Shown here piece by piece: positions 60,532-60,604 of a stretch of DNA of 64,000 bases; position 1 is the stretch's first letter; each line of letters starts with the position of its first letter. Source of the stretch: a virus (Duplodnaviria > Caudoviricetes); the IMG/VR virus record IMGVR_UViG_3300020049_010822, positions 35,852 through 99,851 of that record, one strand, 5' to 3'. The position numbers and the translations under genes are program-made. The notes under the pieces are model-generated. The model saw nothing but the letters and a program-made list of their open reading frames with translations. It did not search any database and was not told where the DNA came from.

Positions 60532-60604
60532 CAGGGGCGACAATGTTCGAGATTGCAACTTCGGTTTTGAAGACCGACCGGTTCACACTTTACCCCACAC
60601 CCCT
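60532..60604 (-). tRNA. opal suppressor tRNA (Trp-type, anticodon TCA)
   Basis: AGGGGTG/CGCCCCT acceptor with G discriminator as in bacterial tRNA-Trp; anticodon arm TCGGT-CT TCA AA-ACCGA (anticodon 60568-60570); T arm GCAAT-CTCGAAC-ATTGT; 73 nt, short variable loop. Confidence 0.93.

Follow-up and report, generated by a model that had tools for sequence, protein, structure and literature searches.

The window analysed here is the whole of a 64,000-nt stretch of viral DNA, bases 35852-99851 of a 99,851-bp IMG/VR record that CheckV rates as about 99% complete. PHROG profiles recovered a large terminase (TerL), a portal, a GroEL-like protein, a virion structural protein and a LAGLIDADG endonuclease. 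The closest TerL among cultured phages was that of Cellulophaga phage phi14:2 (Crassvirales, Steigviridae), with 35% identity over 97% of the protein, and the record therefore represents an environmental (wastewater/freshwater) crAss-like phage; the relatives of this phage infect Bacteroidota. Megablast of window positions 59000-64000 against GenBank phages returned no match.

The tRNA gene and its place in the genome

The end of the window holds a conserved gene order: gene g61317, a spacer, gene g59140, the GroEL-like gene and TerL. Within the spacer, on the minus strand, Rfam model RF00005 matched a 73-nt tRNA with 42.9 bits (gathering score 29; E-value 9.2e-6 over the whole 64-kb window), and the match covered model positions 1-71 of 71, that is, the full length. 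The gene and its diagnostic parts are as follows.

60604..60532, minus strand: 73-nt tRNA (RF00005 match)
60583..60591, minus strand: D loop, AAAGUGUGA, without adjacent GG (alignments with homologues)
60568..60570, minus strand: anticodon UCA in the 7-nt loop CUUCAAA (Infernal), with U33, A37 and A38 as in tRNA-Trp
60540..60556, minus strand: T arm GCAAU-CUCGAAC-AUUGU, with U53-A61 for G53-C61 and C54 for U54

Read 5' to 3' on the minus strand, the Infernal alignment gives an acceptor stem AGGGGUG/CGCCCCU with discriminator G73, U8 and G9 at the two following positions, a D stem GGGU/ACCG whose first pair is a G10.G25 mismatch, an anticodon arm UCGGU-CUUCAAA-ACCGA and a variable loop AGUU. 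The residues U8, A14, A21, U33, U55, C56 and A58 have all been retained. As the 3' flank reads CUAAGG, the gene encodes no CCA. A sequence-only reading of this DNA had placed a tRNA at exactly these coordinates, with the strand unstated, and had described a T loop CUCGAAC, a D loop lacking the GG pair and the lack of an encoded CCA; every one of these details proved correct.

That reading had also named ARAGORN as a check. ARAGORN did not call the tRNA at 60532-60604 with default settings, with introns allowed (-i) or with lowered thresholds (-ps), either in the window or in the whole genome. A tRNA-Arg with a 2.8-kb intron that appeared in the -i run was disregarded as spurious. When the tRNA was compared by blastn with phages, we obtained only non-significant matches to the anticodon arm, and the same search against E. 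coli genomes gave no match.

Contigs from two wastewater runs of one study reproduced positions 60398-60708 without any difference, which makes an assembly error unlikely, although one of these samples may be the window's own assembly source and the agreement is then not independent confirmation. A strain variant among the wastewater contigs, which diverges upstream of 60730, carries an identical tRNA. One contig, from a run labelled RNA-Seq (its status as RNA is a guess), covers 60523-60730, which is not proof of transcription. A scan for sigma-70 promoters and terminators near the tRNA returned nothing usable; the model is not of the Bacteroidota type.

TGA is used block-wise

Evidence that TGA is read as sense came from many minus-strand ORFs that fuse across one or two TGAs each. 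The usage differs along the genome. In the first ~20 kb (genome 1-20064, plus strand) 13 of 35 ORFs end in TGA, and since these TGAs are located at the ends of code-4 ORFs we take them to be real stops. Like the Bacteroidota hosts of the relatives, these stops point to a host that uses the standard code. Over the remaining ~80 kb the genes end in TAA or TAG, and 46 TGAs lie internally and in frame. Counted over the code-4 ORFs of the whole genome, 68 TGA stand against 301 TGG, or 18% of Trp codons (the plus-strand block has 50 TGA and 158 TGG, the minus-strand block 18 TGA and 143 TGG). The positions within the window are as follows.

57491..57493, minus strand: TGA at TerL Trp27; W in phi14:2 TerL, TGG or TGA in 10 relatives
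57332..57334, minus strand: TGA at TerL Trp80; W in phi14:2 TerL and in 9 relatives, Y in the tenth
7626..62703, minus strand: span of the 16 in-frame TGAs of the minus-strand genes, all of which end in TAA or TAG; first bases at 7628, 9140, 12360, 19507, 30367, 30292, 34420, 36717, 45466, 47567, 49070, 49311, 57493, 57334, 62703 and 62697

We compared these codons with 16 IMG/VR relatives (50-70% TerL identity) and three longer sister genomes. Of the 16 minus-strand TGAs, 10 stand opposite a W in one relative or more, and the others opposite F, L, V or Y. For the genome as a whole, most in-frame TGAs have TGG or TGA as their counterpart in relatives and the rest have aromatic residues, with both flanks conserved; in the reverse direction, TGAs of relatives fall opposite a TGG of this genome 46 times. 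The codons are unevenly spread among genes. The portal gene, the GroEL-like gene and three ~780-aa proteins at 38459-45442 are free of TGA, and among the essential enzymes TerL has two and a 651-aa ORF at genome 21220-23175 has four. An A follows the TGA in 25 of 46 cases, compared with 63 of 202 after TGG (p = 0.004), which fits selection for suppression over termination. Taken together, these alignments indicate that the phage really does read TGA as Trp outside its first ~20 kb.

The early genes, where TGA terminates, showed a further feature. A TAA or TAG follows within six codons of the TGA stop in 8 of 13 cases, compared with 35% of controls (p ~0.046), and two of these stops are tandem TGA-TAA. 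Such back-up stops may be an insurance against the phage's own suppressor; the trend is marginal, is consistent with readthrough by that suppressor and says nothing on the loops of the tRNA.

At the other end of the window, the 115-aa gene at 62689-63036 (minus strand) has its two TGAs, at 62703 and 62697, four and two codons before the TAA. Both align to TGG in relatives, and without suppression the protein would be short of no more than its last four residues.

The tRNA derives from tRNA-Trp

The tRNA described above is the only one with anticodon UCA that we found in the 99.9-kb genome, where the other RF00005 matches are a tRNA-Lys(UUU) and a 132-nt tRNA-like RNA. Profile searches of the whole 99.9-kb genome recovered no gene for a release factor (PF00472, PF03462), for TrpRS (PF00579) or for a CCA-adding enzyme (PF01743), and the earlier remark that neither a release factor nor a TrpRS is visible in the window thus holds for the complete genome.

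Caulobacter phage RB23 has an annotated tRNA-Trp whose acceptor stem and G73 agree base for base with those of the window's tRNA, and the two anticodon arms differ only by C34->U; E. coli trpT gives the same pattern. What the three have in common is an acceptor AGGGG(U/C)G/CGCCCCU, G73 and an arm (C)GGU-CUNCAAA-ACCG, and the anticodon loop of trpT shares C32, U33, A37 and A38 with that of the phage tRNA. The latter departs from tRNA-Trp(CCA) in having U34 for C34, another D arm, a non-canonical T arm and no CCA, which trpT encodes. Because acceptor, G73 and anticodon arm match tRNA-Trp apart from C34->U, we regard the gene as a derivative of tRNA-Trp, and the tRNA-Trp-like acceptor and discriminator of the sequence-only reading are borne out by annotated genes. 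The identity set recognized by TrpRS consists of the G73 discriminator, A1-U72 and G5-C68, and all three are present.

An anticodon UCA by itself leaves the amino acid unfixed, and the homologues described below are labelled 'SeC' by ARAGORN, a label that comes from the anticodon. That the UGA reader carries some other amino acid in place of Trp (such as the Gly of code 25, or Cys), or is a tRNA-Sec, nevertheless seems to us exceedingly improbable, given that TGA stands overwhelmingly opposite W or TGG and otherwise opposite aromatic residues, and that G73, A1-U72 and G5-C68 match tRNA-Trp. The features of tRNA-Sec that we looked for were a long variable arm, 8/5 or 9/4 acceptor/T stems and a 6-bp D stem; the tRNA has a 4-nt variable loop, 7/5 acceptor/T stems and a 4-bp D stem, and the tRNA-Sec model RF01852 had no match in the window.

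A search of 185,579 bacterial genomes with a family pattern that allowed either CCA or UCA returned three matches, none of them a tRNA by ARAGORN, and we therefore name no donor or host.

Homologous copies preserve the helices

Homologues of the tRNA occupy the same syntenic spacer in relatives.

L009 3330-3400: homologous tRNA(UCA)
L012 7566-7637, equal to L016 3039-3110: homologous tRNA(UCA)

An IMG/VR scan with the family pattern retrieved only three homologues, all of them known before. The copies in L009 and L012/L016 resemble the tRNA of the window in the D stem with its G10.G25 mismatch, the anticodon loop, the variable loop AGUU and G73. They differ from it in having a T loop UUCGAGU, G53-C61, a D-loop GG and a stable T arm, and they score 52.8 bits and are detected by ARAGORN, whereas the window's tRNA scores 42.9 and is undetected. 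Since its syntenic homologues have a canonical elbow, the odd loops of the window's tRNA are a derived state.

Divergence among these copies has left the secondary structure in place. The comparison of the homologues covers no more than three distinct sequences. In it, both sides have changed at 11 of 21 pairs, including all five of the T stem, and 95% of alignment cells are paired, a figure that drops to 54% or less if the 3' partners are slid. All ten T-stem positions differ between this tRNA and that of L009, yet 5 of 5 still pair, and no damage is seen in the acceptor and anticodon stems. The compensating changes of the T stem favour a working tRNA over a relic and are our main argument for function.

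A decaying relic, with UGA decoded instead by a host suppressor, by an undetected phage tRNA or by near-cognate host tRNA-Trp(CCA), would account for the loss of three near-universal elbow features, for the failure of ARAGORN to call the gene and for the recoding relatives in which no tRNA(UCA) was detectable in the parts examined. We judge it very unlikely. Neutral decay would be expected to break T-stem pairs, and they are kept despite change at every position; U33, the UCA anticodon, A37, A38, U8, A14, A21, U55, C56, A58 and G73 are likewise all retained. Moreover, the genome depends on 46 in-frame TGAs for which no other candidate decoder was found, and the tRNA is identical in the strain variant with a different upstream flank. 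To judge from its sequence and that of its relatives, this gene is probably a working opal suppressor tRNA that arose from a bacterial-type tRNA-Trp by C34->U.

The tRNA and recoding among relatives

A tRNA(UCA) is present in the spacer of the recoding relatives L009, L012/L016, L006/L010 and L014. In L005 the spacer is short and without a tRNA, and TGA is found 0 times in 4,613 aligned codons and at 0 of 47 aligned Trp codons. Four further relatives (L007, L008, L013 and L017) recode TGA, and no tRNA(UCA) was found in the parts of their sequence that were examined. An Rfam scan by E-value of L007, L013 and L006, together with a crude stem-loop scan for acceptor stems, yielded no further tRNA(UCA), and a metagenome search with TerL added one 100-kb relative, L030, whose examined part ends before the tRNA spacer. 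For the clade, the UGA decoder of L007, L008, L013 and L017 may thus be something other than a tRNA at this spot.

Such incomplete detection matches the rates in the literature. Surveys have found a suppressor tRNA in ~35-40% of stop-codon-recoded phages and regard the undetected suppressors as probably divergent (PMC7886860; bioRxiv 10.1101/2021.08.26.457843); for code-4 phages a UCA suppressor was present in only 35% (bioRxiv 10.1101/2021.08.26.457843).

The elbow of the tRNA is loosened

Three highly conserved features of the RF00005 consensus, namely G53-C61, U54 and the adjacent G18G19, are absent from the window's tRNA. In their place it has U53-A61, C54 and a G18G19 split by U; in the alignment, it is the GG of the homologues' D loop (AAU-GGU-A) that the U divides. 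ARAGORN misses the gene because of this loosened elbow, to which an A/U-rich T stem also belongs. Folding predictions, which leave out tertiary contacts and base modifications, gave the T-arm hairpin an energy of -0.2 kcal/mol, compared with -5.8 and -4.4 in the homologues, and a T-stem pair probability in the ensemble of 0.01, compared with >0.9. The same predictions favour an alternative fold, the best one at -20.6 kcal/mol, over the cloverleaf at -17.8.

The predicted weakness of the T arm is compatible with a weaker suppressor, and the sequence-only reading had proposed one as a fit to the sparse use of TGA. If the tRNA were attenuated by design, the loosened elbow would lower its stability, its CCA addition or its use by the ribosome, and UGA would be read only in part; each TGA would then work as a dimmer for its gene, and the UGA stops of the host would for the most part be respected. 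Besides the T arm, several observations lean this way: a score 10 bits under that of the homologues, the genes that lack TGA, the enrichment of A after TGA and the back-up stops of the early genes.

The comparison with a canonical homologue does not bear out the link to sparse use. Genome G008, whose tRNA is canonical, has 69 TGA to 244 TGG, a share of 22% that is as sparse as the 18% found here; in genome G010 the share is 19%. Since G008 is equally sparse with a canonical tRNA, sparse TGA use and the avoidance of TGA in certain genes are clade-wide traits and not tied to the loops. Near TerL the TGA share of Trp codons ranges from 0 to 36% across relatives and has no clean relation to the type of tRNA. 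Poor suppression would also be costly where several TGAs lie in essential enzymes, as they do in TerL and the 651-aa ORF, and the folding predictions, with their omission of tertiary contacts and base modifications, count for less on that account. We therefore consider attenuation by design possible though unlikely. What stands of the earlier reading is a tRNA-Trp-derived UCA tRNA in a phage that reads TGA as Trp; the tie between its loops and sparse TGA use does not.

The direction of any effect could go either way. The Hirsh suppressor, an E. coli tRNA-Trp with the D-arm change G24A, raises the reading of UGA. It resembles the present tRNA in that a change of the tRNA-Trp body outside the anticodon bears on UGA reading, and differs in that it keeps the CCA anticodon and miscodes, whereas the present tRNA has a UCA anticodon and a body that is altered at the elbow. 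Because such changes of the tRNA-Trp body can raise UGA reading, a looser body could equally help decoding. That the tRNA limits readthrough of host UGA stops is speculation. Adaptation rather than drift might also have loosened the elbow, the helices being kept by compensating changes in a suppressor with altered handling; we put this forward tentatively and think it rather improbable. Possible effects of altered handling would be another rate of accommodation relative to RF2, a lower steady-state level or escape from host factors that read the elbow.

Other elements of the spacer

Directly upstream of the tRNA lies a block that is shared with the relatives L006/L010.

60608..60646, minus strand: 39-nt block, 85% conserved in L006/L010 (blastn)

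The block may be a promoter or a processing element; its role as a reiterated phage promoter was ruled out by its single copy in the genome. An 8-nt complement flanks the tRNA (~60656-60663 with ~60268-60275). A large tmRNA-like RNA around the tRNA was considered and dropped, there being no tmRNA signal from Rfam or ARAGORN and no G3.U70. In sister phages the spacer does hold a tmRNA, called by ARAGORN, right next to the suppressor tRNA (the Rfam score for L006 is 53.4 bits), and none was found in the genome that the window belongs to.

L012 6944-7224: tmRNA
L016 2417-2697: tmRNA
L014 5275-5598: tmRNA
L006 5128-5389: tmRNA

The spacer and the rest of the genome also hold tRNA-like elements. 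About 100 nt upstream of the tRNA is a minihelix without an anticodon arm (60704-60763, minus strand). Its acceptor CCCGGUG/CACCGGG pairs perfectly over 7 bp and is accompanied by a D-arm-like hairpin and by the canonical T arm GUAGG-UUCGAGU-CCUAU. In the strain variant from wastewater contigs, whose divergence begins upstream of 60730, the T arm and the 3' acceptor strand of the minihelix are kept. Rearrangement of a tRNA gene may have left this element behind as a stump. A lone T arm, GUUGG-UUCGAAU-CCAAC, with an acceptor-like 3' strand lies downstream of the tRNA at a distance of about 230 nt (~60268-60300, minus strand). The 17-nt arm is identical in L007 (~7040-7095); there, pairing of the flanks could give a short acceptor stem that has G3.U70. 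Outside the window, the 132-nt RNA at genome 4136-4267 (plus strand; L002 1501-1632) matches RF00005 with 46.6 bits and has canonical tRNA acceptor, D and T arms, with about 76 nt at the place of the anticodon arm, about 60 of them extra.

These look-alikes raise the question whether the tRNA might itself be a tRNA-like RNA in a non-decoding role, as a decoy, a primer or a regulatory mimic. The minihelix and the lone T arm of the same spacer, and the 132-nt RNA elsewhere in the genome, would suit that role; unlike them, the tRNA has a complete standard anticodon arm with the exact loop context of tRNA-Trp, and its presence tracks TGA recoding across relatives. We accordingly view a non-decoding role as highly improbable and treat the gene as a probable UGA decoder.

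The relatives are rich in group I introns, with several RF00028 matches above cut-off in L013, and the TerL match in L030 is split by ~960 nt. RF00028 had no match at cut-off in the window. The regions in relatives are as follows.

L013 6597-7717 and 16742-20547: group I intron regions
L007 5260-5451: group I intron region
L006 17301-17504: group I intron region
L030 3411-6611: split TerL match

Long-armed tRNAs in the same spacer

In other relatives the same spacer holds a tRNA(UCA) of another build, 94-98 nt in length and labelled 'SeC' by ARAGORN.

L006 5513-5610, equal to L010 5520-5617: long-armed tRNA(UCA)
L014 4109-4202: long-armed tRNA(UCA)

The tRNA of the window is without the long arm of this class. 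In L006/L010 and L014 the long variable arm has a stem of 4-6 bp and a loop GUCCAAA, that is, U-CCA-AA, which is the anticodon loop of tRNA-Trp. Scanning IMG/VR with the pattern CTTCAAA...GTCCAAA...GTTCGA returned 41 stretches, among them 32 tRNAs by ARAGORN, of which 28 are distinct (loci L051-L091). Every one of these long-armed tRNAs carries a UCA anticodon and, behind an acceptor stem of 7 bp, G73; their stems vary greatly in sequence, with covariation in the stems of the arm. When the middle bases of the loop were freed (GTNNAAA), CC was found in 29 of 30 real tRNAs and the chance matches scattered. At most loci with a long-armed tRNA the cover by long ORFs rises, by up to +0.70, when TGA is opened and not when TAG is, and in genome G010, where no further tRNA turned up, the in-frame TGAs fall opposite W. 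No description of a long arm with a Trp anticodon loop turned up in the papers searched. From the sequences, the arm may serve to show a CCA 'anticodon' to TrpRS, so that the UGA decoder would be charged with Trp; it would then be a built-in identity decoy.

Discussion

Phage suppressor tRNAs that turn TGA into Trp are already known, and what is added here is a case that is hard to detect and has canonical sister copies. It is established that crAss-like and other phages recode TGA to Trp by means of suppressor tRNAs of their own; the recoding is often block-wise, and a phage TrpRS or release factor is usually absent (PMC7886860; bioRxiv 10.1101/2021.08.26.457843). The present phage resembles the code-4 gut phages described by Yutin et al. 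2021 (PMC7886860) and Borges et al. in its UCA anticodon, in TGA=Trp in TerL and other conserved genes, in keeping part of its genome in the standard code and in the lack of TrpRS and release factor genes, which most of those phages share and for which host TrpRS is the presumed charger. It differs from them in being of an environmental lineage, with phi14:2 as its nearest cultured relative (35% TerL identity), in a recoding that is densest in replication genes and not limited to late genes, and in a tRNA that has lost G53-C61, U54 and the adjacent G18G19 and escapes ARAGORN. Bench work has shown that a phage tRNA(UCA) paired with a phage TrpRS inserts Trp at UGA (AP1, HF2; PMC12636597). The AP1 and HF2 pairs share with this phage a natural tRNA(UCA) for Trp, with G73 in the AP1 tRNA, and differ in that these phages carry their own TrpRS in a 'code change' operon (PMC12636597), none being present in this genome. 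E. coli TrpRS charges UCA suppressors (bioRxiv 10.1101/2021.08.26.457843).

A plausible course of events would start with transcription of the tRNA out of the variable spacer that precedes the GroEL-like gene and TerL. Host enzymes would trim the transcript and add CCA, since the phage encodes neither CCA nor a CCA-adding enzyme, and host TrpRS would charge it with Trp by way of G73, A1-U72, G5-C68 and C35-A36. The charged tRNA would decode UGA, and probably UGG too, in competition with host RF2. Suppression would thereby permit translation of the ~80 kb that hold the replication, virion RNA polymerase, packaging and structural genes with their 46 in-frame TGAs.

The gene is a documented case of the divergent suppressors that surveys have suspected, needed by 46 TGAs and unseen by ARAGORN. 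Together, the odd-elbow tRNA and its canonical homologues at the same locus form a natural pair for the weight of the elbow in stop-codon suppression. If the elbow is an adaptation, sister phages would have met a separate problem, that of Trp charging, by grafting an arm that mimics a CCA anticodon onto their tRNA(UCA), and a single spacer of this clade would serve to try out different kinds of UGA decoder. If the long arm recruits TrpRS, it would explain how host TrpRS charges a UGA decoder and would be useful for genetic-code engineering, and the long-armed class, which is widespread among TGA-recoded phages, may matter more than the window's own tRNA.
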